Shown here: one piece after another, positions 3,989-34,435 of the stretch
Numbering within the stretch: position 1 is the stretch's first letter
Layout: each line of letters opens with the position of its first letter
From: an uncultured Pseudomonadales bacterium
Lineage (GTDB): Bacteria; Patescibacteriota; Microgenomatia; UBA1400; PJMF01
Assembly: GCA_964637295.1 (NCBI GenBank)
Contig: CAZWWE010000001.1
Coordinates: 20,327 to 84,326 of the forward strand
DNA: 64,000 nt
Direction: 5' to 3'
Position numbers and translations under genes: made by a program
The notes under the pieces: generated by a model
Database searches by the model: none
What the model was told of the DNA's origin: nothing
The model's input: only the letters and a program-made list of their open reading frames with translations

Positions 3989-4861
3989 CTAAATTAACTC
4001 GCTATTTTCTTCTTTGGAAACTTCTTTTTTCGATCGCTCCAACACATAGATATCTTGGTGGTAATCATTCTCACCAACAAATTCTGCTTTACCTTGAATA
4101 ATTTTTTCAAAAGGTCGACAAGCAAAGCATCCGGCTTCTCCGTGGGGACATTTGAAACGCTCCAGTTGGCGAGCTAATTTCATTTCTTTGGCAATTTTTA
4201 AAATCTGAGCATGAGCAGTTGCTAAATCAGGCAAAGTTTTTTCAACTATTTTGCCCGTTTCCAGATACCAATAGCTAGCTTTACTAACTTGGCGATGCTG
4301 ACAGTTGTGTACCAAAAGATGATAAATTGGCAACTGCAGGGAGCTTTCATTTTCTTCATTTTTACTGGTTTTAAAATCAATAATATTGACCCCGTCATTC
4401 TCCTTGAGATATTCCAACCAATCAATTTTGCCACAAAGAATAATGCCCTCTTCTTCGGACAACCAGTAGTGTGGCAATTCTTCTTTGATTTTGACTGCTA
4501 AATTTGCTAAAGGACCTGGCTGATCCATCACTTTTTGCAGCATGGCTCGGCCTCTTTCTAGATATAAGGCTTCAACTTCTTGATTAAAAAAACCGCCTTT
4601 TTTTCCAGCAAGCTTTTGCCAGTGACGGTCAAGCTTGACGATTAAAGACTCTTTGAAACGCTCTGGACCAGTTAAAACCGATAAAGATTCCAAAACACTA
4701 TGCACCGCTTGACCCAAAGCCAAGGGAGGCGACATTAGCTGAATTTTGTGACGAGTTTTGGGATCCTTGTAAACATTCTTGAGATAATAGGCGCGTGGAC
4801 ATTGTAAAAAATCGCTAATCGAAGTGTGAGAAACCCAAACTGCAGTGTATTGATCAGGCAT
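3989..4861 (-). CDS. PD-(D/E)XK nuclease, Cas4/RecB-like with 4-Cys Fe-S motif
   Basis: One N-terminal Cys (QCPRAYY) plus a C-terminal CPHGEAGCFAC cluster (C-x5-C-x2-C), typical of Cas4/AddB-type nucleases. No CRISPR array or cas genes nearby. Confidence 0.55.
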   Translation of the reverse strand: MPDQYTAVWVSHTSISDFLQCPRAYYLKNVYKDPKTRHKIQLMSPPLALGQAVHSVLESLSVLTGPERFKESLIVKLDRHWQKLAGKKGGFFNQEVEALYLERGRAMLQKVMDQPGPLANLAVKIKEELPHYWLSEEEGIILCGKIDWLEYLKENDGVNIIDFKTSKNEENESSLQLPIYHLLVHNCQHRQVSKASYWYLETGKIVEKTLPDLATAHAQILKIAKEMKLARQLERFKCPHGEAGCFACRPFEKIIQGKAEFVGENDYHQDIYVLERSKKEVSKEENSELI

Positions 4862-6808: not shown

Positions 6809-6869
6809 GCCCTTTTATTTTGATGAGAAAGAGCAGTTTTCTGTTATAATCACCTAGTATTTTTAACAA

Positions 6870-6954
6870 GGAGGCATCGCATAGTGGCCAATTGCACAGG
6901 TTTGCTAAACCTGACCCCTTTTGGGGTTCCTGGGTTCAAATCCCAGTGCCTCCG
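6870..6954 (+). tRNA. tRNA-Ser (anticodon GCU), type II with long variable arm
   Basis: Hand-folded cloverleaf. Acceptor ggaggca/tgcctcc. 3-bp D stem. Anticodon stem caggt/acctg with loop ttGCTaa. Variable hairpin cccc-tttt-gggg. T arm ctggg-ttcaaat-cccag. Discriminator G. Confidence 0.8.
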
Positions 6955-7054
6955 CAACAATCGAAAAGTTCTGATAGACCCGTCTAATACCCTCAAATGG
7001 GTTGATGGGGCTTGCTAAATTTTCCTGATTTGAACATTTTTTAGTTTAACAGCC
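6955..7054 (+). repeat. repeat A copy 1 (~100 nt), directly after the tRNA-Ser 3' end
   Basis: caacaatcgaaaagttctgatagacccgtctaatacc...gggttgatggggcttgctaa...tgatttgaacatttttt..aacagcc. The same element recurs at 8713, 13738, 15097 (truncated), 32616, with a remnant at 12665. Confidence 0.85.
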
Positions 7055-7132
7055 GTGTAAGTGAGAAAAAATAAATTATTGACATTTATCTCACTTTATT
7101 TACCATTTTTAATAAAAGGAAGTAAATAATTT

Positions 7133-7579
7133 ATGAAAATTGCAGTAGTATTCTCAACGCTATCTGGAACCACATTATTAATTTCAGAAAATATTGTGAG
7201 TTACTTAAAAGATAGCAACCATAAAGTAAAATTATTTGATGCCATGAGTGTAGATCCGGATGATTTAAAAGACTATGATTTAGTTTTTTTTGGAAGTTCT
7301 ACCTATGGCAATGGCGATTTAAATCCTATTACAGAGTTATTTCTTTCCACAGCAGATTCACAGAGGCATAATTGCAATAATACACGTTTTGCTTTTTTTT
7401 CACTTGGAGACTCCAGTTACCCAAATTTTTCTACAAGTGGTCAATTAAGTAGTGAAAAAATTTCATCAATGAATGGTAATGTTCTTAAACCAATTTTTAA
7501 GATTGATGGATACCCGAATGAGGATACTTTTAAAGGAGTAAGAGAATGGGTTGAAAGTATTATTGAACAACTTAAATAA
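7133..7579 (+). CDS. flavodoxin (short-chain)
   Basis: N-terminal MKIAVVFSTLSGTT phosphate-binding loop and overall flavodoxin layout. 148 aa. Confidence 0.7.
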   Translation: MKIAVVFSTLSGTTLLISENIVSYLKDSNHKVKLFDAMSVDPDDLKDYDLVFFGSSTYGNGDLNPITELFLSTADSQRHNCNNTRFAFFSLGDSSYPNFSTSGQLSSEKISSMNGNVLKPIFKIDGYPNEDTFKGVREWVESIIEQLK

Positions 7580-7607
7580 ATATAATGTGAGTGATAAAAT
7601 CACAACT

Positions 7608-7937
7608 ATGACAGAACCAATCAGTACTCTCACAACTCACCCTCACAAGACTGCCACATTAGTCTCTTATCAAGAAGGATCAGTTGTTAGCCGAGAGATT
7701 GTGAGAACCCCCAAAACTACCATTACCGCATTTGCCTTTGCCAAAGGACAGGGATTGAGTGAACACACCACCCCTTTTACTGCTTTTGTGCAAATACTAG
7801 AGGGGGAAGCAACTATTTCAGTAAATGGAAAAGCTCATCTGGTAAAAGAAGGTGAAGCACTTATCATGCCGGCAAATTCCCCTCACGCATTAAAGGCAAC
7901 CCAGCAATTCAAAATGTTGCTTACTATGATTAAGTAA
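7608..7937 (+). CDS. cupin-domain protein
   Basis: Cupin_2-like core (GxxxxH...EGEA...G....P...PH). I placed the start at the internal Met after the flavodoxin stop. Confidence 0.55.
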   Translation: MTEPISTLTTHPHKTATLVSYQEGSVVSREIVRTPKTTITAFAFAKGQGLSEHTTPFTAFVQILEGEATISVNGKAHLVKEGEALIMPANSPHALKATQQFKMLLTMIK

Positions 7938-8018
7938 GATTGCTAAATAAATTTTCACTGTAGGCGAGTTTAGTTGCACAGATGTTGATAAGTAATAAAA
8001 ATTTTTATTACAACGCAT

Positions 8019-8381
8019 ATGATGAAAAACCTTATTGTTAGACGTATTTATGATGACTTTAGTGAGAACAATTACCATCGAATCTTGGTAGATCGGTTTT
8101 GGCCTCGAGGTATTAGCAAAAAAGACGTTTGTATTGATAGATGGGAGAAGGAAATTGCCCCACCGCGAGAGTTGGTTGTTTGGTTTCATCAAGACAAAGA
8201 GAAAAGGTTTGAAGAATTTGAAAAAAAGTATACAACTTATTTAGAAGACCATGCTAATTTAGTTGCGGATATAACTCGTAGAGAGGGAGGTGTGGCTCTA
8301 ATAACTGCTGTTAAAGATATAGAACACTCCCATATTCCGTCTTTGCTGCGATACATTAAAAACATGCATAATCTTTATTAG
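8019..8381 (+). CDS. DUF488 (YeaO-like) family protein
   Basis: N-terminal IxRIYD and RILVDRxWPRGxxK pattern characteristic of DUF488. Confidence 0.6.
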   Translation: MMKNLIVRRIYDDFSENNYHRILVDRFWPRGISKKDVCIDRWEKEIAPPRELVVWFHQDKEKRFEEFEKKYTTYLEDHANLVADITRREGGVALITAVKDIEHSHIPSLLRYIKNMHNLY

Positions 8382-8618
8382 TGTCATTTACTAACTTGCA
8401 AAGTATGCTCTTCTCAAAATTATTTACTCGCACTGATGGTAGTTATAATTATTCTGACTAGTTCTTTAGCAATGTACTTTTAATCCATAAGAACAGAAAT
8501 TATTGTTGATCTAAATATAACCAACGCTGTCAGCCATTTTTCTTTAGAGGTTATCATTAAAGTGCTTGCACAAATTCCTATTATAAAAAGACAAGCTATT
8601 TCTTACTCAAATTTTAAT

Positions 8619-8711
8619 GCTTCGCAAGGTCAGAAAATGAGCTAAAATGGCTCTTAGACCTATAACTACTTGAGGTAAATGTCGTGCGGTACAAATCCCT
8701 TCGTCCCCGCA
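8619..8711 (+). repeat. repeat B copy a: tRNA-3'-end-like element (T-loop-like ggtacaaatcc + ...ccccgca) lacking a 5' acceptor strand
   Basis: gcttcgcaaggtc..gagctaaaatggctcttagacctataactacttgaggtaaatgtcgtgcggtacaaatcccttcgtccccgca. Near-identical copies at 12570 and 34309. Immediately followed by repeat A. Confidence 0.75.
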
Positions 8712-8712
8712 T

Positions 8713-8809
8713 CAATCGAAAAGTTCTGACAGACCCGTCTAATACCGCTAAATGGGTTGATGGGGCTTGCTAAAATTGCTCGGTTTGAACATTTTTCGTT
8801 TCAACAGCC
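8713..8809 (+). repeat. repeat A copy 2
   Basis: caatcgaaaagttctgacagacccgtctaataccgctaaatgggttgatggggcttgctaaa...ggtttgaacattttt..aacagcc. Confidence 0.85.
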
Positions 8810-8850
8810 TCGTAAGGTGTGGCAAATGCAGTTACAAGGATAATTTCTTT

Positions 8851-9540
8851 CTATTTTTTATTTTTCTTCACTAATTTATCTGCAATGATATTTCCATCTT
8901 CTAGCTCTATAATTCTGTCCGCCACTTGTGCATATTCTGGTTCGTGAGTCACCATGACAATAGTCTGACCTTCTTGATTGAGTTTTTTAAAAATTTCTAA
9001 AATTATTTCTGAAGACTCCGTATCCAAATTAGCAGTTGGTTCATCTGCAAACAAAATTTTGGGGTTGTGAGTGATGGATCTAGCAATACTAACCCGTTGT
9101 TGTTGTCCTCCTGAAAGTTGATTGGGTAAGTTATCTGCTTTATCTTCTAGTCCCACTTTTTTCAAAGCTTCTTCAGCTCTCTCCATTGCAGTTTGCTGAT
9201 CAATTCCCTTCATGATCATCGGTAGAGCTATGTTCTCACTAGCAGTCAAAGAAGGTAGGAGTGCATAATCTTGGAAAATATAACCAATATTATTACGACG
9301 AAAAACAATCTTCTGATCTTCTTTGAGAGCAATGATATCGTTTTCATCGATAGATATTTCTCCAGAGTTCGGTCTGTCAAGTAAACTCATTTGATAAAGA
9401 AGAGTACTTTTACCAGATCCTGACTTACCAGTAATAGCCACAAATTGACCTTCTGGAATGCTAAAGATTAGTTCTTTGAGAGCAGTTAGTTCTGTATCTC
9501 CCATCTGGAATTTTTTTATTAAATTTTTGACTTTAATCAT
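8851..9540 (-). CDS. ABC transporter ATP-binding protein (MacB/LolD-type)
   Basis: Walker A GKSGSGKST. Signature LSGGQQQRVSIAR. Walker B ILFADEPT. Followed by an FtsX-like permease. Confidence 0.85.
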   Translation of the reverse strand: MIKVKNLIKKFQMGDTELTALKELIFSIPEGQFVAITGKSGSGKSTLLYQMSLLDRPNSGEISIDENDIIALKEDQKIVFRRNNIGYIFQDYALLPSLTASENIALPMIMKGIDQQTAMERAEEALKKVGLEDKADNLPNQLSGGQQQRVSIARSITHNPKILFADEPTANLDTESSEIILEIFKKLNQEGQTIVMVTHEPEYAQVADRIIELEDGNIIADKLVKKNKK

Positions 9541-9543
9541 ATT

Positions 9544-10806
9544 TTATTTTCCTAAAATTGAATCGAGAGTGTTTTGTCTAGTTACCAATCTCGCTGGGAT
9601 GAATCCAGATATTAGAGAAGTAATAATTAGAATTATACCCCTAGTTAAAATGTCTCCATTGGTAACAGCCAGTCTTCCTTCTGCGATGGGTAAAACTAAA
9701 GGGTGAATGTCTAAATATGGCTTCAAAAATCCCATAAGAAATAAGCTAGCCAGTAACACTCCAGACAAAGCATAAAACAAAGATTGAATGACATAAGAAA
9801 TCTCAATTGCCTGGGCAGAAATACCAATTCCTTTCAGAATCCCAATATATTTTCTTCTAGTGATGGCATTCACAAAAATAACAATAAAAATCGTAATTGC
9901 TCCCACAATCAAGGCAATAACACCCACCAAGTTACCTAGTAATTTAAAAGTTTTAGTGATATCAGCGCTACTACCAGGCACCGCCTCATCCGCTGTTTGA
10001 ATGGTGATATCTTGATTTTTTTCTAAAATATTTTGTAAATATGATCTGGACTCATTCACTAAATTAGCAGAGGTCAACTTAATGGCAATTTCATTTACAT
10101 CTAAATTCTCTTGATTTTTCATCTCTCTAGCAGCCACATCTACTACAAAAATCCTTGAGTCAATAGTATTATTGCCAGTTCCAACAATTCCTTTAATAAT
10201 AAATTCTTTTTGGGTTTTGCCGACTATGATATTGATCACAGAGCCCACTTCAGCATTTTTTAGTTTTTGTTCTGTACTACTATCAGGCCGATTGGAATAT
10301 TTTTCAAATAAATTTTTACCCACCAAAACTGAGTTAAAATCTGTATCACTTAAATATTCACCCTCAATAACTTTTTTTGATAAATCTGTCACTTCATTCT
10401 CTTGCGCAAAATTTATCCCGGTCAAAACAGCTTGTGAGTTTTCTACGATATCGGTTGTTTCTGTTCGAGTACGATGACCGTATTCAACTTTAGCAGGGGT
10501 AGTTATTCTAAGTGTGTAACTGTCTAAATTTGGAATTGTTTCAACCGCAGAAGTAATATCTTGGGTTTGTTCAATAATTGATTTTTCAGTACTTGGAGTA
10601 ATAAAAAGATCTGCTGAGTAATATTGTTTAAATGAACCAATCATGCCTTGAGCTAGACCTAGCAGTAGTCCTCCGATCAAGACCATGTTTAAAAAGGTTA
10701 AAGACATTACAAAAATAATCAGTAGTGTAGTCCAAGGATTGCTGCGTTTTAAATCCCTGATTGCTAAAAAACGGCCGACAGTAAATGATGCATTTGTTTT
10801 ATTCAT
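9544..10806 (-). CDS. ABC transporter permease, FtsX/MacB-like with large periplasmic domain
   Basis: N-terminal TM, about 250-aa extracytoplasmic domain, C-terminal 3-TM FtsX domain. Adjacent to the ATPase. Confidence 0.75.
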   Translation of the reverse strand: MNKTNASFTVGRFLAIRDLKRSNPWTTLLIIFVMSLTFLNMVLIGGLLLGLAQGMIGSFKQYYSADLFITPSTEKSIIEQTQDITSAVETIPNLDSYTLRITTPAKVEYGHRTRTETTDIVENSQAVLTGINFAQENEVTDLSKKVIEGEYLSDTDFNSVLVGKNLFEKYSNRPDSSTEQKLKNAEVGSVINIIVGKTQKEFIIKGIVGTGNNTIDSRIFVVDVAAREMKNQENLDVNEIAIKLTSANLVNESRSYLQNILEKNQDITIQTADEAVPGSSADITKTFKLLGNLVGVIALIVGAITIFIVIFVNAITRRKYIGILKGIGISAQAIEISYVIQSLFYALSGVLLASLFLMGFLKPYLDIHPLVLPIAEGRLAVTNGDILTRGIILIITSLISGFIPARLVTRQNTLDSILGK

Positions 10807-10819
10807 GTTTTTGTTTTAA

Positions 10820-12055
10820 CTAATCAGTAACAGCTAAAATTTCTAAACCCTCTGGTAACTCGCTAGCGATCTCTGTCTTTGTCAATCCTTGGTAACCCAA
10901 ATTAACTTTTACTAAATCTTCTTGCTTATTTGCCTTTTTTAAATAAGCCTGATTATCTTGATATAAAATTGCTGAATTGGGCACACTCACCACATCATTT
11001 TTTTCATAAGTGTTAATAGTAATGGTAGCTGTCATGCTCGGTTTAATTTCTGATGAAGTGAAATCAGTTAATTCAATACGAACGTCATAAGTGGTTATCC
11101 CAGCAGTTGTAGTACCGATAGTATCAATTGCTGTAATTTTCCCAGTAAAAATAGTTTTTTTATCTGCATCAAATACTATTTGAGCTTCTTGGCCTTCTTT
11201 GAGACGAATGACATCAATTTCACTAGCCTTAGCAATGATCGAAGGTGTTTCTATGTTGCTTACTAATAGAACCGGTTGACCACCCACTTGACTAGCTACA
11301 CCATCGCCAACACTCTTCAATAAATTGACCACTTTCCCGCTGGCGGGAGAGTATACGGTTTTACTTTTTGTGGCATCCAATGCGAGTTTGGCGGAATTAA
11401 CTAATGCTTGAGCAGAAGCAATGTTTTGGTCGGCCTGTTTATACTGATTTTCTGTATTTTCAAATTCTTTGCGAGTTGTAGTTACCGCTGACTTTATGCT
11501 CTCAATTTCAAGTTGTGTATATGGTTCTTTTGTAGTTGGGTTATCACCACTTTCTGCTAAACGATCGTTCATCAAGTTTAAATTATTTTCAGCATCTAAA
11601 AGTGCTTTTTGTTTGACCCACATGGTAGCATCAGCGGTTTCTTTGGCTTGTTTTGCAGTTTGTAAAGCGGTCACAGCTTGTTGATAATTGGTGTTTGCAG
11701 CAGCCTTTTCATCATCAGAGGCTGTGCTCTCAACATAAAAAAGAGGATCACCTTTTTGCACAGTGTCCTGGTTAGAAACAAAAAATTGAGAAATGACTCC
11801 ATTTGTGGGAGAGAATACCTCTGTTTGAGAGGAAGCATTATAAGTGCCTGTTATTTTTACGGTTTCTGATAACTGACTTTTGTGTATAGTGTAAGTCAAT
11901 CTTTCATCAGGCTGACGAAGAATTACTGATCTCAAAATTAGTAAGCCAATTAGTATTGCTAAAATTATTAGGTAGGAGCGATACTTTTTAATGGAATTCA
12001 TATCTAATTTGATTTTGCTAAATTTATTTTTCATATTTTTGTAAAAAGTCTTCAA
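10820..12055 (-). CDS. HlyD/MacA-family membrane-fusion (periplasmic adaptor) protein
   Basis: N-terminal TM. Long coiled-coil hairpin region. C-terminal beta-barrel-like segment. Clustered with the ABC ATPase/permease. Confidence 0.7.
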   Translation of the reverse strand: MKTFYKNMKNKFSKIKLDMNSIKKYRSYLIILAILIGLLILRSVILRQPDERLTYTIHKSQLSETVKITGTYNASSQTEVFSPTNGVISQFFVSNQDTVQKGDPLFYVESTASDDEKAAANTNYQQAVTALQTAKQAKETADATMWVKQKALLDAENNLNLMNDRLAESGDNPTTKEPYTQLEIESIKSAVTTTRKEFENTENQYKQADQNIASAQALVNSAKLALDATKSKTVYSPASGKVVNLLKSVGDGVASQVGGQPVLLVSNIETPSIIAKASEIDVIRLKEGQEAQIVFDADKKTIFTGKITAIDTIGTTTAGITTYDVRIELTDFTSSEIKPSMTATITINTYEKNDVVSVPNSAILYQDNQAYLKKANKQEDLVKVNLGYQGLTKTEIASELPEGLEILAVTD

Positions 12056-12461
12056 AAATGCTTACTACTGTTTCTAAATCCTTTGCTGAAATCGGAGCTA
12101 AAATTTGATTAGCTTTTTGTTCCATTCTTTTCAAAATTGAAGCCAAATGCTCTTCGCCATCACTAGTTAAAGATAAAAGAATTAAGCGACGATCATTCTT
12201 GTCATTTTTCCTAGAAATAAACTTGGATTTGATTAATCTATCAGTCATTTGAGTCAATGCTGATGGGGACATTTGCAATCTTAATGCTAGTTCACTGGCA
12301 GTAATAGGTGAATTTTCCTTAATGGTTTTTAATGTCTGCACTTGCAACATGGTTGGAATATTATCTTCATCACTATCATCCAATGTTTGATCTAGTATCT
12401 TTCTCATTTTCAGCATGGTATTGAAAAACTTAGAAAAATCTTTTTGTTGATTTGTTTTCAT
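12024..12461 (-). CDS. MarR-family transcriptional regulator
   Basis: Winged-HTH MarR layout (…ASELALRLQMSPSALTQMTDRLIKSKFISRKNDKNDRRLILLSLT…). First gene of the efflux operon. Confidence 0.75.
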   Translation of the reverse strand: MKTNQQKDFSKFFNTMLKMRKILDQTLDDSDEDNIPTMLQVQTLKTIKENSPITASELALRLQMSPSALTQMTDRLIKSKFISRKNDKNDRRLILLSLTSDGEEHLASILKRMEQKANQILAPISAKDLETVVSIFEDFLQKYEK

Positions 12462-12569
12462 ATTAGGATTGGTTTAAAATTATTTCATGTAATTAATATT
12501 TTATGTCATAAAGTAATTTTGTCAAGACTGTTTTTTTAAAACATAACTCTTGAATTAGTTTAGAAGTGA

Positions 12570-12664
12570 ATCTTCGCAATACCCCGAATGTAAGTTAAAA
12601 TGGCTCTTAGACCTATAACTACCAGAGGTAAATGTGTTGCGGTACAAATCCCTTCTTCCCCGCA
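12570..12664 (+). repeat. repeat B copy b
   Basis: atcttcgcaa...taaaatggctcttagacctataactaccagaggtaaatgtgttgcggtacaaatcccttcttccccgca. Followed at 12665-12679 by tcctaagatttgaac, a remnant of the 3' part of repeat A. Confidence 0.75.
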
Positions 12665-12880
12665 TCCTAAGATTTGAACTATAGTGACAGTCACTCAAAA
12701 TATTTTTTTCGTATATCTTGATTAGTCCTCATTTTAATGTTATAATGACGTTACAAACGCACATTAAAATCATGTGGTTTGTGAATGAATCATAGTAAAT
12801 TTATGTATGCTGTTTATTATGATTCATCCACAAGCTATTTGCAGCTCAAAGGATGAAAATCTTTTTGTAGGAGGGCCAAG

Positions 12881-13198
12881 ATGGCCAAGTATTTTTATAA
12901 CGGAAATGGGGATGCACTCCCCACCTCTTATGTAGAGGATGTTCAACAAGAATACAAAGGCACCACCATGGATGGAGATGCGGTCTACCACGTGACGTTT
13001 TTTGACGCACGTCGCCGCAAACACATCTCCTACGATACGGTTGTTTACCGTGGAGAACACGAGTATATCCCTGGCAGTGGTCACGAGCGTGATCATGGCA
13101 GTGAGAATATTTCTCGTTGGGACTCCGGCAATCGTGTAACTTGGCAAGAAGCGCTTCGCAGTCACACTCGCGATTTACTGCCATATAGCAGACGCTAA
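12881..13198 (+). CDS. orphan small protein in a visibly G+C-richer patch
   Basis: 105-aa ORF (MAKYFYNGNGDALPTSY...). Composition is clearly richer in G/C than the flanks. Both strands are open here, so strand is uncertain. I chose plus because a GC-rich hairpin follows the stop. Confidence 0.4.
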   Translation: MAKYFYNGNGDALPTSYVEDVQQEYKGTTMDGDAVYHVTFFDARRRKHISYDTVVYRGEHEYIPGSGHERDHGSENISRWDSGNRVTWQEALRSHTRDLLPYSRR

Positions 13199-13207
13199 TT
13201 GTCAAAA

Positions 13208-13232
13208 GGGGTCAGCCCGAAAGGGCTGACCC
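13208..13232 (+). terminator. GC-rich hairpin gggtcagccc-gaaa-gggctgaccc after the orphan gene
   Basis: Perfect 10-bp stem with GAAA tetraloop. No clean U-tract follows. Confidence 0.45.
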
Positions 13233-13262
13233 AATTCAAAACAAATAGCTTATAATCAAAGT

Positions 13263-13631
13263 ATGTTATTAAAAGAAAACTACTCCTTTATTCATTTTCC
13301 AGTTACCAACAAAAATCCTGAAGAAATACTTTCTCTTTATTCTGAAGAATTCGCAATCAATAAACCAGAAACAATAACTCAGATAAAAACGATATTTGCT
13401 AATGCACTTCGAGATTATTTATCAGGAAAAATTGGAGAGTGGGAGCTAGGATCTCTTGCCTTTTCTTTGTCAGCTGATAAACAATTATCCTCCATAGTTA
13501 AACAAGATCAAAAACTTAGTAAGATTATTTTTGAATGTGTTGATATCAAATGGTTATCTGAAGGAAAAAATTTTGATCAATATAAAAAAGAATTACAAAA
13601 TTTCTTAAATTCTATTACTAGTAATAAATAA
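13263..13631 (+). CDS. hypothetical protein; possible immunity/partner protein of the preceding orphan gene
   Basis: 122-aa ORF with no recognisable motif. Confidence 0.45.
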   Translation: MLLKENYSFIHFPVTNKNPEEILSLYSEEFAINKPETITQIKTIFANALRDYLSGKIGEWELGSLAFSLSADKQLSSIVKQDQKLSKIIFECVDIKWLSEGKNFDQYKKELQNFLNSITSNK

Positions 13632-13699
13632 GTAAAGCTTTTTTATACTGTCCCATTCGTCCCATTTCAAGATATAATTCTTGTTATAAAAGTTACATT

Positions 13700-13737
13700 T
13701 ATAACGACGCACGGGTTCCAGACCCATCTGCTCCGCA
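13700..13737 (+). repeat. repeat C copy 1: tRNA-3'-end-like element ending gctccgca
   Basis: tataacgacgcacgggttccagacccatctgctccgca. Recurs at 15058. Immediately followed by repeat A. Confidence 0.7.
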
Positions 13738-13835
13738 ACGATCGAAAAGTTCTGACAGACCCGTCTAATACCGCTAAATGGGTTGATGGTGCTTGCTAAT
13801 TTTCCTTAGTTAGAACATTTTTCGCTTTAACAGCC
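13738..13835 (+). repeat. repeat A copy 3
   Basis: acgatcgaaaagttctgacagacccgtctaataccgctaaatgggttgatggtgcttgctaa...ttagaacattttt..aacagcc. Confidence 0.85.
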
Positions 13836-13873
13836 GGTGTAACAAATTAAACCGAGAGTTGTAATCATCTCAA

Positions 13874-14856
13874 ATGAGACTACCAAAGAATTGCGTTTCT
13901 TTATTAGAAAAAGCTCGAGACTCAGCAACGCAAGCAATTTCTAAATATAATGACCCAAGAAGCATATTTAGAACGGGGAACTTCTCGGTTCTCATGATTA
14001 TAGCTTGGACAGCATTGCTTCATGCCTATTTTGAAAAAAATAAAACTAAGTACTTTTACAAAAAGAATCAATACAGATATCAAATAATTGATGGCGAAAA
14101 AAAGCTTGGGATTTGCAAAAGTGCTTGAATGAAATTTTTGATGAAAATAATCCCATACGTAAAAATATCGAGCTCTTCATAAGGTTAAGAAATAAGATTG
14201 AGCATAGAAATTTACCCGGTCTTGATCCTGAACTTGTCGGTGAATCACAGGCACTTGTTTTAAACTTTGAAGAATGGATAGCTCAAGAATTTGGTGAGAA
14301 ATATTCATTATTGGAAACTATTTTTGTTCCAATTCAATTAACTTCTGCTCAGAGATCTCTTCCAAAAACTAAAATTGAAGAAAATGTTCTCAAGTTCATT
14401 CAAACTTATAGGAATGTTCTTGAGACAAATGTCATAAATTCGCTAAAGTACACTTTCAAAGCTTATCTCGTTCCCAAGATTGGTAACCACAGAACCTCAT
14501 CAGATATGGCTATTGAATTTGTAAAATATGATGAAAGCAATCCTGAGGAGATAGAAAAATACAACAAGGCTATTGTTGCAATAAAAGAAAAAGTTATTCC
14601 TGTTGCAAACCTGAATCACTACAAACCAACTCAGGTGTTAGAGAAATTGGTAGAACGTGATTTTAGCAAAAACCAACACTGGCACGTGACTATGTGGAAA
14701 AAGTATAAGGTCGGGCCAGAACCAAATGCGATTAATAAATCAAACTGCAAATCAGAATACTGTATTTATGATAGCGCTCATTCTGATTATTTATACACTG
14801 ATGCTTGGATAGACATGCTCATTGCAGATCTTCAAGGAAAAATGAATCTCTTGTAA
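13874..14856 (+). pseudogene. HEPN-containing Abi_2 (AbiD/AbiF)-like abortive-infection gene, frameshifted at an A7 homopolymer
   Basis: Two overlapping ORFs (13874-14128 frame 2; 14113-14856 frame 1) join at gaaaaaaag (~14095). The downstream part carries an Rx4H HEPN motif (LRNKIEHRN). Combined length ~325 aa fits Abi_2. Confidence 0.45.
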
Positions 14857-15057
14857 AGAGAAAGAATTATTTATCCTGGAAATATAATAACTAATGATTG
14901 CGCAAAACAAAACACTCCTTTTTTATAAGGTCACATTTGTCTCATTTTTTCTCCGTTAGCCTGGTGATACAATTGATCATTGACGCGACTTTCTAGGTCT
15001 CATTTGTCCCGTTTTTGCTAAAATTACTCTAGAAGCCAGATTTTGGGAATGGGACAG

Positions 15058-15096
15058 CTATAACGACGCACGGGTTCCAGACTAGGATGCTCCGCA
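15058..15096 (+). repeat. repeat C copy 2
   Basis: ctataacgacgcacgggttccagactaggatgctccgca. Confidence 0.7.
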
Positions 15097-15135
15097 ACAA
15101 TCGAAAAGTTCTGATAAACCCGTCTAATATCGTTA
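15097..15135 (+). repeat. repeat A copy 4 (5' part only, truncated)
   Basis: caacaatcgaaaagttctgataaacccgtctaatatcg, then unrelated sequence. Confidence 0.7.
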
Positions 15136-15239
15136 AAAGTTTGATTTATTAGTTTTCATATAGAAATTTGATAAATGGTGAATAATAAAGTATCTAAAAA
15201 CTATATGTCTGTGTTATTATAACTAAGAAAAATATATCT

Positions 15240-21482: not shown

Positions 21483-21567
21483 GGAGAGATCGCATAGTGG
21501 CCGAGTGCAGCGGTTTACTAAACCGCCATAGCGCAAGCTATCCAGGGTTCGAATCCCTGTCTCTCCG
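21483..21567 (+). tRNA. type II (Ser-class) tRNA with apparent anticodon ACU
   Basis: Acceptor ggagaga/tctctcc, discriminator G. 3-bp D stem. Anticodon stem gcggt/accgc with loop ttACTaa. Long variable arm. T arm caggg-ttcgaat-ccctg. Confidence 0.65.
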
Positions 21568-21871
21568 CAAAGATCTGAAGCTTAATAAAACCGATAGCAC
21601 TTGTTAAAAGTAAAGTGTTTCTCATTCTTTCGCTAAACTTACTTCCTCAAGAATAACATCGTCTATCTCAATAGTTTCTTTTGTGAAATCGCGAATCTCT
21701 TTAGATAAAGATATTTTAAAAACAAAATTATTTAAAGTAGCCAAGTTAGATAAAACTTCTCCAGTGATAGTGAAAATGCCTACAATCGTTGACGAAACAA
21801 AAATACTTGTTGCTGAAAAGTATGGTAAAAATATTTCTCCAATTCTCCTGTGTATATCTGCTCTCTACAAA

Positions 21872-29108: not shown

Positions 29109-30230
29109 TTATTTATTTGCAATGATTTTTTCCCAACTAAATTCTGCTCTGCCAAAATGGCCATAAGCGGCAGTTTGAGCAAAAACTGGCTGGCGCAAAG
29201 CCAGCTGATTAATGATGTTTTGCACTGACATATCTAGTAAGCCCAAGGCATATTTTTTAATTTCCTGATCACTGACTTTGCCAGTTCCAAAAGTTTCTAT
29301 ATTAAGAGAAACTGGTTTGGCTTGACCGATGACATAAGCCACTTGCAATTCACAGCGCCTGGCTAAACCCTGAGCAACAATGTTTTTGGCCAAAAATCGA
29401 CAAGCATAAGCTGCGCTACGATCAACTTTGCTAGGATCTTTACCAGAAAAACAGCCACCGCCATGACGACCCATGCCACCATAAGTATCAATGATAATTT
29501 TGCGACCAGTAAGACCGGTGTCAGAAGCTGGTCCGCCAATTTCCCAAGCTCCAGTCCCATTGATAATTAACTTAATTTTATTTTGATCCAAGATTTGCTT
29601 TGGGAAATATTTTTTCACTGCAGGAACAATCACTTTGCTCCACAAATCTTGTTCTAACTGGTCTTTACTAATTTGCGGATCATAAGGTACGGCCATAATA
29701 ATCGTCGAGACTTGATCAGGTTTACCATCTAAATAATCAATCACTACCTGAGCCTTGCCATCCGGCCTCAAATAGGAAATCACTAAATTTTCGCGAGCCT
29801 GATCCAGATTAAACATTAATTGGTGAGCCAACATAATCGGCATTGGCATCAACTCGGGTGTTTCATCGCAAGCATAGCCAAACATCATGCCCTGATCACC
29901 AGCGCCGCCCCCATCTACGCCCATGGCAATATCCTGAGATTGCTGATGAATGTAAACTTCAATGTCTGCTTGGTCAGAAAAGCCCCAAGCAGGATTGGTG
30001 TAGCCGAGCTTTTTAATCGTTTGACGGGCGATTTTTTCATAGTCGATTTTGCCAGCACTAGTCACCTCACCAGCTAAAATCACTTTATTGGTGGTCACTA
30101 AAGTTTCCATTGCCACTCGACTATGAGGATCAATTTTCAAACAAGCATCAACGATGCCATCGGAAATTTGATCGCAAATTTTATCAGGATGACCTGCAGC
30201 CACTGATTCTGAAGTAAATTGTTCGAACAT
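29109..30230 (-). CDS. metK: S-adenosylmethionine synthetase
   Basis: N-terminal FTSESVAAGHPDKICDQISD. GGGAFSGKD-like motif. Full-length MAT. Confidence 0.9.
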   Translation of the reverse strand: MFEQFTSESVAAGHPDKICDQISDGIVDACLKIDPHSRVAMETLVTTNKVILAGEVTSAGKIDYEKIARQTIKKLGYTNPAWGFSDQADIEVYIHQQSQDIAMGVDGGGAGDQGMMFGYACDETPELMPMPIMLAHQLMFNLDQARENLVISYLRPDGKAQVVIDYLDGKPDQVSTIIMAVPYDPQISKDQLEQDLWSKVIVPAVKKYFPKQILDQNKIKLIINGTGAWEIGGPASDTGLTGRKIIIDTYGGMGRHGGGCFSGKDPSKVDRSAAYACRFLAKNIVAQGLARRCELQVAYVIGQAKPVSLNIETFGTGKVSDQEIKKYALGLLDMSVQNIINQLALRQPVFAQTAAYGHFGRAEFSWEKIIANK

Positions 30231-30560
30231 ATTTTACCCTTCCAAAAAAAGATTAACCTTCTATTAATGTGGGGAGAAAATAAAAAAACACTCCGCCAAG
30301 AGTGTTTGATAGATCCCCCCTATGCGAATAAAAATTGATTGTTAATTCATCATATATTTATGGATTTTTGGAGACAGAGATTCACGATAGTAGCTTTGCC
30401 TACTTGAGTGAAGCTCTAACGTACAAAAAGACATAAATAGATGTGAAAGAACTGTTTATTCTTATTCGCAGAGAGGGGGATCTTGCTTTCTCAAACGAGC
30501 GAATCTCCCTCTTGCGAGCTAGATTTAGCACCGTATTTTTTCAAATATTTTGAAATAAAA
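30231..30560 (-). promoter_or_regulatory. structured metK 5' leader with intrinsic terminator; candidate SAM-responsive riboswitch/attenuator
   Basis: On the metK strand, a terminator hairpin (aaacactc-ttggcgg-agtgttt + U-run) sits ~45 nt upstream of the ATG. A 20-nt long-range inverted repeat (30311-30330 vs 30463-30483) can form an alternative pairing. An AAGAGGGAGA segment resembles part of the SAM-I core. Confidence 0.4.
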
Positions 30561-30661
30561 TCGGTTGCTGAATGGGTCAAAAGGCTAGTTCCCTCACCAT
30601 TTCTCTTGATTTAATTTGTTAATCAAAACAATTTTAACAAAAAACTGTTAAAATGTCAGTC

Positions 30662-31240: not shown

Positions 31241-31337
31241 AATTTGATTAACACTATCTAATTTATCAATTCAAGATATAATGTCTTTCAGTATTAATTG
31301 TCTTGGACGAAGAGTCCAGGAAAGAAGAGTCCATTTT

Positions 31338-31694
31338 ATGTCAGATCAAAATGACAACATGGAAAACAAGAAAAAAATCTTCGTGGGTAATTTGCCTTTC
31401 AGCATGACCCAAGATGCTTTGCAAAATTTGTTTTCCGAATTTGGCGAAATTACCCAAGTCAGTTTAATTACTGATAGAATGACCGGCCGTTCTAAGGGTT
31501 TCGCTTTTGTAGAATTTGCCGAAGAAGCTAGTGCACAAGCTGCCATTGATAAAATGTCAGGTACAGCAGTAGAAGAGAGAGAGTTGGTAGTTAATATCGC
31601 TCGACCTCGTGAACCAAGAAACGATCGTTTCCCTCGTAGAGACAATCGCGGTTTTGGTGGTGGAAGACCACAAAATAGAGATCGTAGATATTAA
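31338..31694 (+). CDS. RRM-domain RNA-binding protein with Arg/Gly-rich C-terminal tail
   Basis: RNP-2 IFVGNL and RNP-1 KGFAFVEF. C-terminus RPREPRNDRFPRRDNRGFGGGRPQNRDRRY. I placed the start at the Met preceding the RRM, not the upstream ORF-tool start. Confidence 0.75.
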   Translation: MSDQNDNMENKKKIFVGNLPFSMTQDALQNLFSEFGEITQVSLITDRMTGRSKGFAFVEFAEEASAQAAIDKMSGTAVEERELVVNIARPREPRNDRFPRRDNRGFGGGRPQNRDRRY

Positions 31695-31713: not shown

Positions 31714-31741
31714 AAACGCCAGGTTATTACCTGGCGTTTTT
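31714..31741 (+). terminator. intrinsic terminator after the RRM gene
   Basis: aaacgccagg-ttatta-cctggcgttttt. Confidence 0.7.
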
Positions 31742-31787
31742 GGATTTGCAGAACCATTTTTTCAAGAGAGATGGTAAAATAACCTTT

Positions 31788-32453
31788 ATGTCTTTTGCAA
31801 CAGAAAATTCTGGCACTAATAGACCTGCTTCACATCCAACAAACCCTGCTGGATTAAATCCAGATTGGCAGTTTAATACACCTCAACCATCGATGGGTGA
31901 GGCAGTTTTGGATGCTGTCAAAGATGTTGTGGGTCTGTATATTGATTCATTAACTAACTGTCACAATCGCGCATTTTTAAGAAAATTTTTAGAAACTCAA
32001 TTTGATCCAAAAAAAGATGACGGTAAACTAGCCATTGTCTTTATTGACTTTAATAAACTAAAAGAAATGAACGATCAATTTGGTCATGACTTCGGAAATA
32101 GAGCAATCATTGAATTAATTGAATTAATTAAAAAAATGGTCAAATCTCAAGATCTGATTGTTAGATATGGAGGAGACGAATTTATAGTGATCTGTCGAAC
32201 AGATGTTTTAGGTGAGAAAAATTTTCTTGAATCATTGAACGAGAGATTTAAAGCCATACAAAGACTAATCAGCCAACATAATCAACAAATCGGCAGAAAA
32301 GAGCCAGAACAACTTAATTTTGCTTTTGGCGCTGCATTATACGAACGCAGCACTGACAGCGAGGATTTGGAAGCGACAATTAAGCGCGCAGATGCTTTAA
32401 TGTATCAAAATAAAAAAGCAATGAAAAAAAGAAAAGAAAAGTGGAATTTTTGA
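31788..32453 (+). CDS. GGDEF-domain protein (diguanylate cyclase-like)
   Basis: Intact RYGGDEFIVI motif and upstream ...DLTNCHNRAF... start of the GGDEF domain. The ORF-tool start at 31740 is a TTG inside the terminator. I used the ATG at 31788. Confidence 0.65.
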   Translation: MSFATENSGTNRPASHPTNPAGLNPDWQFNTPQPSMGEAVLDAVKDVVGLYIDSLTNCHNRAFLRKFLETQFDPKKDDGKLAIVFIDFNKLKEMNDQFGHDFGNRAIIELIELIKKMVKSQDLIVRYGGDEFIVICRTDVLGEKNFLESLNERFKAIQRLISQHNQQIGRKEPEQLNFAFGAALYERSTDSEDLEATIKRADALMYQNKKAMKKRKEKWNF

Positions 32454-32532
32454 TTTGCTTAACAAATTATCTATTCGGATACGAAGTGTTTTCGAATAAA
32501 TTGAAAGCAATTCTTCTTTAACAATAAACTAT

Positions 32533-32615
32533 GGAGGTGTCGCATAGTGGTCAATTGCACACGCTTGGAAAGCGTGAGCCGCAAGGCTTCGCAGGTTCGA
32601 TTCCTGTCACCTCCG
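32533..32615 (+). tRNA. tRNA-Ser (anticodon GGA), type II
   Basis: Acceptor ggaggtg/cacctcc, discriminator G. 3-bp D stem. Anticodon stem cacgc/gcgtg with loop ttGGAaa. Variable hairpin. T arm with ttcgatt loop. Confidence 0.8.
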
Positions 32616-32715
32616 CAATAATTGAAAAGTTCTGATAGACCCGTCTAATATCGCTGAATGAGTTGATGGGGCTTGCTAAATTTCCTTGATTTAAACATTT
32701 TTTGGTTTAACAGCC
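32616..32715 (+). repeat. repeat A copy 5, directly after tRNA-Ser(GGA)
   Basis: caataattgaaaagttctgatagacccgtctaatatcgctgaatgagttgatggggcttgctaaatttccttgatttaaacattttttggtttaacagcc. Confidence 0.85.
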
Positions 32716-32828
32716 AAAAGGGTTTTGTTATAAAATAGTCTTCAGAAAAGTAAGCTCTTTAGTTAAAAGCGCAAAAATTTTGGCAACAACTTTGAATATA
32801 TGGATGTTATCACTTTAGGAGTAAAAAT

Positions 32829-34295
32829 ATGAATGATCAAGAAACAAGAAGCAACCTCTCTATGTTAGATTTTGAAACCCAAAAGGGACAAAATCATTTG
32901 GAAGAGGTTTCAGAATCAAAAAAAGAACGCCAATTTTCTTTACAATCGGACAAACTGGAAGAAATAAAAAGAGAACTTTTTAAAAACTTATCTGAGATGG
33001 ATCCAAGCCTATTGCTTGATGCAAATTCAAGACAACAAATTTTTAATGAATTTTCAAATAAAATTACTGAAATGTTTCCAGAGATCGCGCTATTTACATC
33101 TGAGGGGCAAAAAGCCTCTGAGTTCTCGCCCAAGCCAGTTGAAGTTGAGCACAAAAAAACCGTCGCATCGCTTTATTACTTGTTGCTTCTCACTTCTAGT
33201 GACACACCTATTCAAAACAAAGATGATGTTAGGTTTAAAATTTTAGTTCCAACTTTTTTCCAAGAAAAGCTCGGCCCACAAATACTTGAGGAGCAACGAA
33301 GAGTGGTGAATACCCTTTTAGGTGATAAAAATAAAATGTGTATGATGGCTTCGATGTTAGCTATACACGACATGGCAAAATTAGAAAGCGTTTTAAGTAT
33401 TATTGATTCAATTAGGACAGAAAACGGGCAGCAACATACTTCTGATCATGATGTAGCTTTGCAGTCACTACTCAATAATGAGCAAAAAACATCAGAAATT
33501 CTACCTACGATGGCTGCTTTACCAAAAGAAAAACAAGAGTTAATTAAGCTAATTTTGAAAGCTGGATCAGAAATAAACATTGGTCAAATTGGTCAAGCAT
33601 TAGAAGGCAATCCAAGTCAAATTGAGGCGATATCTAGAGTGGAACTTTCCCCAGAAGACATTGGTTTTTGGTTTATTGAAAATTTAGCTGATACAGCCAG
33701 TGCTGCTGGCACGGCAGATGGCTCAGCACTAGTCATGTCTCAAGAATCAGTGTGGAATGCTTGGAAATGGGCAGTTGATTCTTTAATAAAAGTTAAAAAA
33801 GAAGGTGTTGATTCAGTTGAAGCATATCTAAACTTACTCAGTCATGAGGCCAACGCTTTAGGCATTACTTTTGACAGAAAAGATAATGAGCAAGTAACTA
33901 GTTTGCGTATTTGTATGGCTTTACAAACCACTGATAAAAGCCTCTATCAAAAAATCCTTAGTTTTATTCAGGACCAACCAAATACAATAACTGACCTATT
34001 TGGAATGGAAGGTATGACTGGAGAACAAACATATCGTCTATACTATTCTCCTTCTATACTGCGTAAGGTTAGTCAAATTTTGAGTCCAGAAGCAGCGATG
34101 AACTTCTTAAATAAAATTACTAACATTTGTAAAGAGAAAATTGATGGTGGTAAAAATTTACAGAATGGTGAAATTACTTTTCAACTATCAAGCATTGATG
34201 CTGCAATCAATCCAAAAATGCCAGCTGATGAACTAACTGCACTTTTAGATAAGAGCTTGACGATTGACGATAATCTTTATGTTAAATTTCAGTAG
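32829..34295 (+). CDS. orphan 488-aa acidic cytoplasmic protein of unknown function
   Basis: No signal peptide or TM. Predicted helical. No recognisable catalytic motif. Bounded by tRNA-Ser(GGA)+repeat A on the left and repeat B on the right. Confidence 0.5.
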   Translation: MNDQETRSNLSMLDFETQKGQNHLEEVSESKKERQFSLQSDKLEEIKRELFKNLSEMDPSLLLDANSRQQIFNEFSNKITEMFPEIALFTSEGQKASEFSPKPVEVEHKKTVASLYYLLLLTSSDTPIQNKDDVRFKILVPTFFQEKLGPQILEEQRRVVNTLLGDKNKMCMMASMLAIHDMAKLESVLSIIDSIRTENGQQHTSDHDVALQSLLNNEQKTSEILPTMAALPKEKQELIKLILKAGSEINIGQIGQALEGNPSQIEAISRVELSPEDIGFWFIENLADTASAAGTADGSALVMSQESVWNAWKWAVDSLIKVKKEGVDSVEAYLNLLSHEANALGITFDRKDNEQVTSLRICMALQTTDKSLYQKILSFIQDQPNTITDLFGMEGMTGEQTYRLYYSPSILRKVSQILSPEAAMNFLNKITNICKEKIDGGKNLQNGEITFQLSSIDAAINPKMPADELTALLDKSLTIDDNLYVKFQ

Positions 34296-34308
34296 AAAAT
34301 TGGTTTTA

Positions 34309-34402
34309 GATCTTCGCAAGGTCTAAAAATGAGCTAAAATGGCTCTTAGACCTATAACTACTTGAGGTAAATGTGCCGTGGTTCAAATCCCATGCTCCGC
34401 CA
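34309..34402 (+). repeat. repeat B copy c
   Basis: gatcttcgcaaggtctaaaaatgagctaaaatggctcttagacctataactacttgaggtaaatgtgccgtggttcaaatcccatgctccgcca. Confidence 0.75.
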
Positions 34403-34435
34403 AAGTCTTGCCATTAAAAATTTATCAATTGAAAA

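Follow-up and report, generated by a model that had tools for sequence, protein, structure and literature searches.

What has settled behind the tRNA-Ser(GGA) gene of contig CAZWWE010000001.1, and how did it get there? In the 64,000-nucleotide stretch of this contig that we analysed (the window), the tRNA gene is followed by a conserved repeat of about 100 nt (repeat A), a single gene, and a second conserved repeat (repeat B). The unit probably is a recombinase-less, integrated attL-cargo-attR cassette, mobilised in trans, that belongs to a phage-like element family of Microgenomates-type Candidate Phyla Radiation (CPR) bacteria built around a large serine recombinase (LSR). The observations cover the layout of the unit, the linkage of both repeats to the LSR, sharp boundaries at CCGC(C)A, and whole cassettes that have moved from one tRNA-Ser gene or genome to another.

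Architecture of the unit

The order of tRNA-Ser(GGA), repeat A, open reading frame (ORF) and repeat B had been put forward in a sequence-only reading of the window, and was confirmed by ARAGORN, Rfam and nhmmer profiles (coordinates are collected in Table 1). The acceptor stem of the tRNA pairs perfectly (GGAGGTG/CACCTCC) and repeat A abuts the end of the tRNA (...CACCTCCGCA) without a gap. Between the two repeats there is only one substantial ORF, with a ribosome-binding site (AGGAG) 8 nt upstream, and its product is, as had been claimed, a single acidic protein of 488 aa (pI 4.84, without a hydrophobic segment). Repeat B starts 8 nt past the stop codon of this gene, and its final ~30 nt (34371-34402, GTGCCGTGGTTCAAATCCCATGCTCCGCCA) are a decayed look-alike of a tRNA T-arm and acceptor strand that ends in CCGCCA and is accepted as a tRNA by neither ARAGORN nor Rfam. 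The A and B cores of the unit match the family consensus. Bounded by both family arms and encoding no recombinase or transfer functions, the unit is best regarded as a non-autonomous member of the LSR element family.

The kinship with the cassettes of an array at 7-21 kb that the same reading had noticed was upheld, as the same A...B layout delimits two sister cassettes behind tRNA-Ser(GCT), 6957-8711 and 8712-12664.

Relocation of whole cassettes

The contigs of three other homologues were examined. The closest homologue (84% identity) is found on metagenome contigs of 150-610 kb, in a neighbourhood with RecA, AhpC and SecG, and is again arranged as tRNA, A, gene and B, here directly behind tRNA-Ser(TGA) (locus L001). 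Aligned by blastn, positions 32530-34398 of the window and L001 share 82.7% identity across 1873 nt; the match extends from the tRNA through B, and beyond 34398 the two are unrelated. The two other homologues (55-57% identity) are found in unrelated neighbourhoods with no adjacent tRNA-Ser and no match to A or B. Synteny of the gene and its flanks without repeats in all relatives was not observed among the contigs of these three homologues, the closest homologue lying in another neighbourhood and having the repeats.

On the right, the cassette is bordered by a convergent gene that encodes a glycosyltransferase-like membrane protein of 536 aa. A contig with the identical gene (L136, from SRR26638155; its positions 4013-4075 correspond to 34373-34435 of the window) has kept the flank (AAGTCTTACC...) and differs in the sequence to the left of it (...TTTTCAAACAGACACCGCCA), which nevertheless has CCGCCA at its end as well. 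The break between L136 and the window falls exactly after CCGCCA, with the L136 contig ending 30 nt further, which indicates that the site is polymorphic between strains. A further contig encoding the identical protein (L135) is arranged as in the window; other relatives of the 536-aa gene are at most 61% identical and show no synteny.

The sister cassettes show the same behaviour. The cassette with the ABC, FtsX, HlyD and MarR genes recurs in four other loci of metagenome-assembled genomes (MAGs), where the alignments begin at CCGCA and, where the locus extends that far (L031 and L045), end at the exact last base of B. In a 'Candidatus Microgenomatus' MAG this cassette stands behind tRNA-Ser(CGA) and is 100% identical to that of the window over 1090 nt (window 8707-9796, L030 1-1090), the identity beginning at CCGCA and the sequence before it being unrelated. 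The flavodoxin/cupin cassette is 97.6% identical in a further MAG (window 6864-8210, L048), where it stands behind a different tRNA-Ser. Such near-identical cassettes, as judged from the alignments, point to very recent exchange between genomes.

In total 17 distinct A...B cassettes were present in the fetched loci, the DUF6829 unit (named after its cargo, see below) included. They measure 0.9-5.8 kb, hold 1-5 genes, are found in both orientations and are tightly packed, the gap between the last ORF and B often being 3-25 nt, and none of the 17 carries an LSR or another recombinase.

The array also contains, interleaved, a second family of att-like ends (12665-13735 and 13840-15095, and L024 6454-7495). 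Directly after B, at 12665, comes its left end, TCCTAAGATTTGAACTATAGTGACAGTCAC, a motif that is also present behind tRNA-Ser(gga) in L024; as right end it has the pseudo-tRNA ACGGGTTCCAGACCCATCTGCTCCGCA at 13695-13735 and 15054-15095, each time followed by a copy of A. The array is closed by a tRNA-Ser with anticodon ACT, thus with A at position 34 (21483-21568, forward strand), which recurs in loci of related CPR MAGs (L008, L025, L041, L048, L051 and L085). Besides tRNA-Arg(ACG), tRNAs with A34 are unusual in bacteria. In L001, past the DUF6829 cassette, we observed (at 7573-7784) a terminator hairpin and then a GC-rich stretch of ~170 nt without an Rfam match, which ends with an exact 14-nt copy of the 3' end of tRNA-Ser(TGA), CCGCCCCTTCCGCA; related ends (GTGCATGTGAGCGA...AATCGTAAATCCC) precede A in L010 (~300-337) and L033 (~2590-2626).

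Distribution and nature of repeats A and B

A profile built from 46 copies of A detected the further copies in the window with nhmmer E values of 1e-31 to 2.5e-9, and identity among the copies, of A as well as of B, is 80-95% across ~100 nt. When genomes were scanned with the A core, 42 true loci emerged, all in Patescibacteria of Microgenomates type. Several A-bearing loci are labelled 'Pseudomonadales'; as their content agrees with that of the CPR loci, we consider this label erroneous. At all 42 loci the A core starts 8-9 nt past ...CCGCA, and this end belongs to a genuine tRNA-Ser (anticodons GCT, GGA, TGA, CGA and ACT), once to a tRNA-Asp, or to a pseudo-tRNA end of one of a few recurring types. 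The insertion mechanism at the 3' ends of Ser tRNAs that had been suggested from the window alone is supported: A follows the ...CCGCA of five anticodon types in dozens of CPR genomes, and the DUF6829 cassette itself is found at tRNA-Ser(TGA) in a relative.

It was considered that A might be a native trailer of the tRNA genes, and this was rejected: 56 of the 86 distinct tRNA-Ser genes in the fetched loci are without a detectable close-family A, and many have terminator hairpins instead. Some tRNA-Ser genes beside distant LSRs carry just a diverged A-like motif. Repeat A is rather the arm of a mobile element.

As for repeat B, an alignment of 21 copies, read by eye rather than by a statistical test, makes it look like the decayed 3' two-thirds of a tRNA-Ser(GCT) gene. 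The tRNA-like parts comprise a remnant of the anticodon loop (GCTAAA), a long variable-arm region, the T-arm and the 3' strand of the acceptor stem. The commonest ends of B are ...CATCCTCCCCGCA and ...CTTCTTCCCCGCA, and in L013, L019 and L026 the remnant is nearly identical to genuine 3' ends of tRNA-Ser.

Association with a large serine recombinase

Clustering of the ORFs at all A loci showed that the most recurrent neighbour of A is an LSR of ~435 aa with the domains Resolvase, Recombinase and Zn_ribbon_recom. When the 98 ORFs lying no more than 5 kb from A were assigned to Pfam families, these three domains came out on top (11, 10 and 9 members), and no tyrosine integrase recurs among the same ORFs. 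In 12 of the 42 genome loci the LSR gene was found 0.4-2.5 kb from A; wherever it occurs near A, it is on the strand opposite to A, reads toward the tRNA and is 0.2-2.5 kb away. The protein is homologous to SprA of SPbeta and to the integrases of TP901-1 and A118, but no deposited phage integrase exceeds 26% identity to it. Behind the LSR gene we found genes for the small and large terminase subunits (TerS and TerL; TerL with a PHROG E value of 1e-79) and for ParB-type DNA methyltransferases, which makes the autonomous element phage-like.

The association was also observed from the side of the recombinase, which has at least 575 relatives in metagenomes. Among 80 metagenome loci fetched with the LSR as query, 37 have a tRNA at most 3.5 kb downstream of the LSR stop codon; all of these tRNAs are convergent with the LSR, and 24 are tRNA-Ser. 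An A-like motif follows 20 of the 24 LSR-facing tRNA-Ser genes and has diverged in step with the LSR, the diverged sequences keeping the blocks GTTC...GACCC.TCTA.TA, GGCTTGCTAAA and AGCCTGTAA. With more distant LSRs (48-62% identity) the 3' end that the recombinase gene faces is that of a Glu, Gln, Trp, Lys, Asp, Leu or Arg tRNA (L072, L079, L080, L116-L120, L124, L126 and L129), and its distance to the LSR stop codon is often just 75-190 nt. The pattern suggests that subclades of the LSR have been redirected to other tRNAs.

Three contigs that represent two distinct sequences (L055, and L058/L059) have B directly abutting A beside the LSR gene, ...GCGGTACAAATCCCTTCTTCCCCGCA being followed immediately by ACAGTTGAAAAGTTCTGATAGACCC.... 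A B/A junction beside the recombinase gene is attP-like (P/P'), which would make A the P' arm and B the P arm.

Site geometry and crossover point

LSR attachment sites are known to measure ~50 bp. From the start of the T-stem sequence GGGTTC to the end of CCGC the distance is 24 nt in the tRNA/A junctions (25 cases), and in an alignment of 65 copies of A, diverged ones beside LSR genes included, the block GACCC ends 26 nt past CCGC in 61 of 62 copies. GGGTTC...GACCC thus spans a 50-bp imperfect inverted site that is centred on the 3' end of the tRNA. A half-site for the LSR would need just the initial ~34 nt of A; the further conserved blocks could bind accessory factors, be a promoter or end the int transcript.

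The tRNA end and the B end share only CCGC(C)A, a repeat of at most 6-7 nt. The same or related cassettes are found behind tRNAs with different T-arms and acceptor stems, and each of these 3' parts pairs perfectly with its own 5' half, so the 3' part of the tRNA is host DNA and the exchange takes place at or after the invariant CCGC. The variable 8-mer after CCGCA travels with A. Plausibly, the 'CA' after CCGC in the attR sites of the DUF6829 cassette comes from the original CCA-encoding tRNA end. Past the crossover, attR flanks and many unoccupied tRNA-Ser genes have unrelated terminator hairpins, which means that the B' half-site is not conserved in sequence.

Proposed mechanism and alternatives

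The autonomous members of the family would carry the LSR, both terminase subunits and DNA methyltransferases, and their attP would be the B/A junction, in which B ends as a decayed 3' part of tRNA-Ser and A comes next. The LSR is predicted to recombine this attP with an attB of ~50 bp whose centre is the extreme 3' end of a tRNA-Ser gene; the exchange presumably takes place in or just after the invariant CCGC. The product would be tRNA/A...B/flank, with tRNA/A as attL, B/flank as attR and the tRNA left intact. The DUF6829 cassette, having both arms but no LSR of its own, would then be integrated and excised in trans by a helper LSR and a putative directionality factor. The helper may be a co-resident or infecting autonomous element, and the cassette would behave like a cis-mobilizable element or a satellite.

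Several observations weigh against this mechanism. No LSR gene is present in the 64-kb window (the best tblastn match has an E value of 8.7) or in the 13-kb locus L001 of the relative, and no candidate for a recombination directionality factor was identified. A complete element with A and B at opposite ends around an LSR was not recovered in the fetched loci, nor was a P arm found within 10 kb upstream of integrated LSRs with a regular expression for tRNA 3' ends; either the autonomous elements would then extend past the fetched loci, or the divergence of their P arms would be too great. The contigs with B and A abutting beside the LSR gene (L055 and L058/L059) are short and may show an array junction instead of a free attP. 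Among the homologue and identical-protein contigs of the two neighbouring genes there was no empty tRNA-Ser(GGA) site from a close relative. No circular form of a cassette was seen, and a scan of IMG/VR with the A core gave no match. Finally, the canonical rule for LSRs is that attP recombines with attB only and that attL and attR are not targets for integration. The internal B/A junctions of the arrays are not produced by successive canonical integrations and need an extra assumption; a relaxed requirement for B' (so that tRNA/A stays a target), cointegrate circles or a RecA-dependent crossover in the ~100-nt arms are the possible explanations.

These same junctions are accommodated by a farther-reaching interpretation that we put forward only tentatively and hold to be rather doubtful, namely that the tRNA-Ser genes of Microgenomates CPR are the multi-locus platforms of an integron-like cassette system run by an LSR. 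Cassettes of 1-5 genes, bounded by ~200 bp of B/A, would be captured, stacked and exchanged singly because the enzyme would read mainly the tRNA-like half-site. If this were true, an occupied site (tRNA/A or the tRNA-mimicking end of B) would still be a target, a departure from canonical LSR directionality.

Other explanations do without mobilisation in trans. The unit might be an immobile remnant, a full LSR prophage that has lost its recombinase and phage genes by internal deletion and is now fixed in the chromosome. The window has indeed no LSR, and integrated LSR elements hold variable cargo between A and the LSR, so that a deletion from there to B would leave A, cargo and B. We nevertheless consider this unlikely, because the same cassette with its arms is found at a different tRNA-Ser in the relative, another MAG has the ABC cassette with 100% identity in different surroundings, both arms fit the consensus core, and all 17 cassettes are compact, with short gaps between the last ORF and B that independent random deletions would hardly produce; a deletion origin would moreover be compatible with later mobilisation in trans. 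It is quite unlikely, too, that RecA-dependent homologous recombination between tRNA-Ser loci has shuffled the cassettes, with the arms as leftover homology. A good deal speaks for it: recA is present in these genomes, the repeats offer ~100 nt of high identity, internal B/A junctions are the expected trace of a single crossover in A or B and are not predicted by the canonical LSR rules, and copies of one cassette differ in their B-end subtype (L031 and the window), which suggests mosaicism within B and hence some homologous exchange. It does not explain, however, why the ABC cassette is bounded on its left exactly at CCGCA, with full identity after it and unrelated sequence before, nor how the first insertion at an unoccupied tRNA-Ser could proceed, as there is no A/B homology to use, and the 8-nt variable spacer that moves with A fits a fixed crossover point.

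Two further explanations concern the nature of the repeats. Functional RNAs, for instance a leader or small RNA transcribed together with the tRNA, or a tRNA-like signal for 3' processing, would account for the position of A directly downstream of the tRNA on the same strand, for conservation over ~100 nt that far exceeds the need of an LSR half-site and for the survival of conserved blocks in diverged copies of A. They are highly improbable, since RNAalifold found no consensus structure on either strand in 65 copies of A and 21 copies of B and neither repeat has an Rfam match at E <= 1, which, like the block-wise conservation, fits protein-binding DNA; an RNA role could in any case coexist with an att role of the initial ~34 nt of A. 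An island made by a tyrosine integrase, in which the element replaces the 3' part of the tRNA and the pseudo-tRNA end of B is the displaced host fragment, is suggested by the tRNA-like remnant at the end of B, which resembles genuine tRNA-Ser ends so closely in the three loci named above, and by the tandem arrays at tRNA genes that are typical of such islands. Against this stand the lack of a recurring tyrosine recombinase near A, the host origin of the 3' part of the tRNA, seen from one cassette behind tRNAs with different T-arms and acceptor stems, which puts the crossover 3' of the tRNA part, and the commonest B ends, which could not pair with a 5' acceptor strand of the GGAG or GGAA type, as read in these tRNA-Ser genes, and do not occur as the end of any tRNA-Ser in the fetched loci. 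We regard such an island as extremely improbable. Mobilisation in trans of an LSR-family cassette thus remains the reading that we prefer.

The cargo protein

The cargo gene had been described as encoding a protein without a recognisable domain, which proved incorrect: the protein is a member of the Pfam family DUF6829 (E = 5.5e-20; 71.9 bits, the cutoff being 27), its residues 147-423 matching positions 77-353 of the 408 of the model, and its homologues also carry PF20717. The family has 88 cluster representatives among 1.84 billion proteins. Members were seen in CPR (Collierbacteria) and also in the protist Perkinsus, from which one cluster member (at least 90% identity) bears the name inositol oxygenase; DUF6829 was further seen fused to DUF1152 and within giant proteins. 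In an alignment of 39 sequences the polar residues E107, D181, K184, H207, D208, N250, Q253, Q256, E259 and D288 are invariant or nearly so. They include an HD-like pattern, HDMAK (180-184), DHD (206-208) and then D288, which is noted only as a lead. The AlphaFold model of this soluble protein is all-alpha and confident (pLDDT 92, pTM 0.88). Foldseek gave no match to this model below E = 0.3 in PDB and BFVD, weak recurring matches to PDE3A catalytic domains (TM ~0.2) were not significant, and searches of PDB sequences with the single protein and with a profile returned noise only.

It is a reasonable guess that the protein is an enzyme with a metal site, possibly with a metal-dependent activity. 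A role in defence or host interaction, as had been suggested, found no support, with no PADLOC match at E <= 0.01 and no significant fold match in PDB or BFVD. As a passenger, the protein does not contribute to mobility. Being mobile cargo places the DUF6829 gene in a context, that of a horizontally acquired accessory gene and not of a core gene.

Coordinates and surroundings

Table 1. Features of the DUF6829 unit and related features of the window; att roles are those proposed in the text.
Feature	Position	Strand	Remarks
tRNA-Ser(GGA) gene, intact	32533-32616	+	ARAGORN; Rfam RF00005, 56.9 bits
Chromosomal (B) half of attL			final ~24 nt of tRNA-Ser(GGA), GGTTCGATTCCTGTCACCTCCGC
Repeat A, element-side (P') arm of attL	32617-32717	+	nhmmer match 32620-32717, E = 7e-29
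Presumed LSR half-site			initial ~34 nt of window repeat A, ATAATTGAAAAGTTCTGATAGACCCGTCTAATAT
Other ~65 nt of repeat A			conserved blocks GGCTTGCTAAA, AACATTTT, TTTAACAGCC
Promoter-like site TTAACA-18-TAAAAT	32707-32736	+	10/12 consensus matches; directed into cargo gene
Cargo gene	32829-34295	+	488 aa, DUF6829; sole substantial ORF between A and B
Repeat B, element-side (P) arm of attR	34304-34402	+	nhmmer match 34310-34400, E = 2.5e-24
Chromosomal flank (B' side of original attB)	34403-34435	+	up to stop codon of convergent 536-aa gene
Predicted empty-site junction			tRNA-Ser(GGA) followed by AAGTCTTGCC
Repeat A copy	6957-7061		behind tRNA-Ser(GCT); nhmmer
Repeat A copy	8713-8816		nhmmer
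Repeat A copy	13739-13838		nhmmer
Repeat A copy, truncated	15097-15144		nhmmer
Repeat B copy	8617-8711		nhmmer
Repeat B copy	12571-12664		nhmmer
Sister cassettes behind tRNA-Ser(GCT)	6956-12664	+	nhmmer, A...B layout
Sister cassette 1	A 6957-7061 to B 8617-8711		flavodoxin, cupin, DUF488
Sister cassette 2	8712-12664		A 8713-8816 to B 12571-12664; MacB-like ABC, FtsX, HlyD, MarR

The -35 hexamer of the promoter-like site lies inside the conserved end of repeat A. The site is a consensus match only, and 12 such sites are found in the region against 6.1 expected by chance.

Directly upstream of tRNA-Ser(GGA) are a gene for an RRM-type RNA-binding protein (31281-31694, forward strand) and one for a small stand-alone GGDEF protein (31740-32453, forward strand); in a collection of 5.8 billion proteins the latter has no homologue but itself at E <= 1e-30. 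Further upstream, a SAM (S-box) riboswitch (30498-30615, reverse strand; 45.1 bits against an Rfam gathering score of 44.4) precedes the minus-strand gene at 29109-30230.

Significance

CPR bacteria (Patescibacteria) are tiny, uncultured and streamlined, and their mobile elements are poorly known. The mechanism proposed here would provide a concrete route of gene flux in these organisms; that the same small cassettes (ABC exporter, flavodoxin/cupin, DUF6829 and others) are passed between genomes at tRNA-Ser genes is shown by the data. The work also draws attention to a large and distant clade of LSRs with a predictable attP (B/A) and a predictable attB (the 3' end of a tRNA); LSRs with known sites are sought-after tools for genome integration. 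The arrays with internal attP-like junctions, moreover, raise a testable question on site selection and directionality of LSRs.

Comparison with known systems

The closest precedents are the ssrA-specific islands of Dehalococcoides, cis-mobilizable elements (CIMEs) and tycheposons, with the ssrA islands as the closest described. These islands have a CcrB-like serine recombinase encoded on the reverse strand beside attL, a module with a ParB-domain gene and a DNA-modification gene, and a tandem arrangement downstream of the tmRNA gene; 15 of 31 are without the integration module, and their authors proposed that these are cis-mobilizable (McMurdie et al. 2011, PMC3146451). The family described here shares with them the reverse-strand serine recombinase beside attL, the ParB and DNA-modification genes, the 3' part of a small stable-RNA gene as target, the tandem units and the recombinase-less members. 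It differs from them in its target, which is tRNA-Ser, with several isoacceptors and loci per genome instead of a single tmRNA gene, and in the position of the crossover, at the extreme 3' end and not in the T-loop. Unlike the ssrA islands it has no 20-bp direct repeat, just CCGC(C)A being common to both ends, and it has conserved arms of ~100 nt, the B arm being the decayed copy of a tRNA. A small partner recombinase like DsiA was not seen, the helper carries terminase genes and a short LSR (~435 aa), the cassettes are of very small size and the hosts belong to CPR.

Classical CIMEs rely on the tyrosine integrases of ICEs (integrative and conjugative elements) and have identical direct repeats at their bounds. 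Our cassettes resemble them in having att sites of a related autonomous element at both ends, no recombinase or transfer genes, and a tandem position with related elements, and differ in the use of an LSR, in the non-identical hybrid sites and in the very small size of the cassettes, down to one gene. The concept of CIMEs and of accretion was described for ICE-related islands of Streptococcus (cited in PMC3146451 and PMC5704250).

The tycheposons of Prochlorococcus integrate into tRNA genes of a streamlined genome, where older elements are pushed outward, degenerate remnants and partial tRNAs are left and adaptive cargo is carried; they use mainly tyrosine recombinases with replication modules and are flanked by partial-tRNA repeats, an LSR being present in 27 of 937 (Hackl et al., bioRxiv 10.1101/2020.12.28.424599). 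The tRNA-anchored islands in streamlined genomes, the successive integrations and the remnants are thus common to both systems, whereas the CPR family is LSR-based and specific for tRNA-Ser, with long conserved arms and many recombinase-less single-gene cassettes.

With integron cassettes the CPR cassettes have in common that they form arrays of compact units, mostly of one to few genes and without a recombinase of their own, with a conserved composite junction and a fixed platform. Unlike in integrons, no IntI tyrosine recombinase recurs near A, there is no attI/Pc platform, A, B and their reverse complements show no attC-type folded palindrome, the cassettes occur in both orientations, and each genome has several platforms (the tRNA-Ser genes).

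Compared with phage LSRs (phiC31, Bxb1, TP901-1, A118 and SprA of SPbeta), the enzyme has the same architecture of Resolvase, Recombinase and zinc ribbon, and the presumed position of the int gene beside attP, the imperfectly symmetric site of ~50 bp and the lack of long identity between attP and attB are also alike. Characterised LSRs mostly target protein-coding genes or intergenic sites, whereas the clade found here targets tRNA 3' ends with an attP whose left arm is itself tRNA-derived, and forms arrays with internal attP-like junctions that would be unexpected under canonical directionality. No published description of this LSR cassette family in CPR was found in the literature, and the family appears to be undescribed; the kind of element that it represents, site-specific integrative elements with recombinase-less satellites in tandem, is already known and does not constitute a new category.

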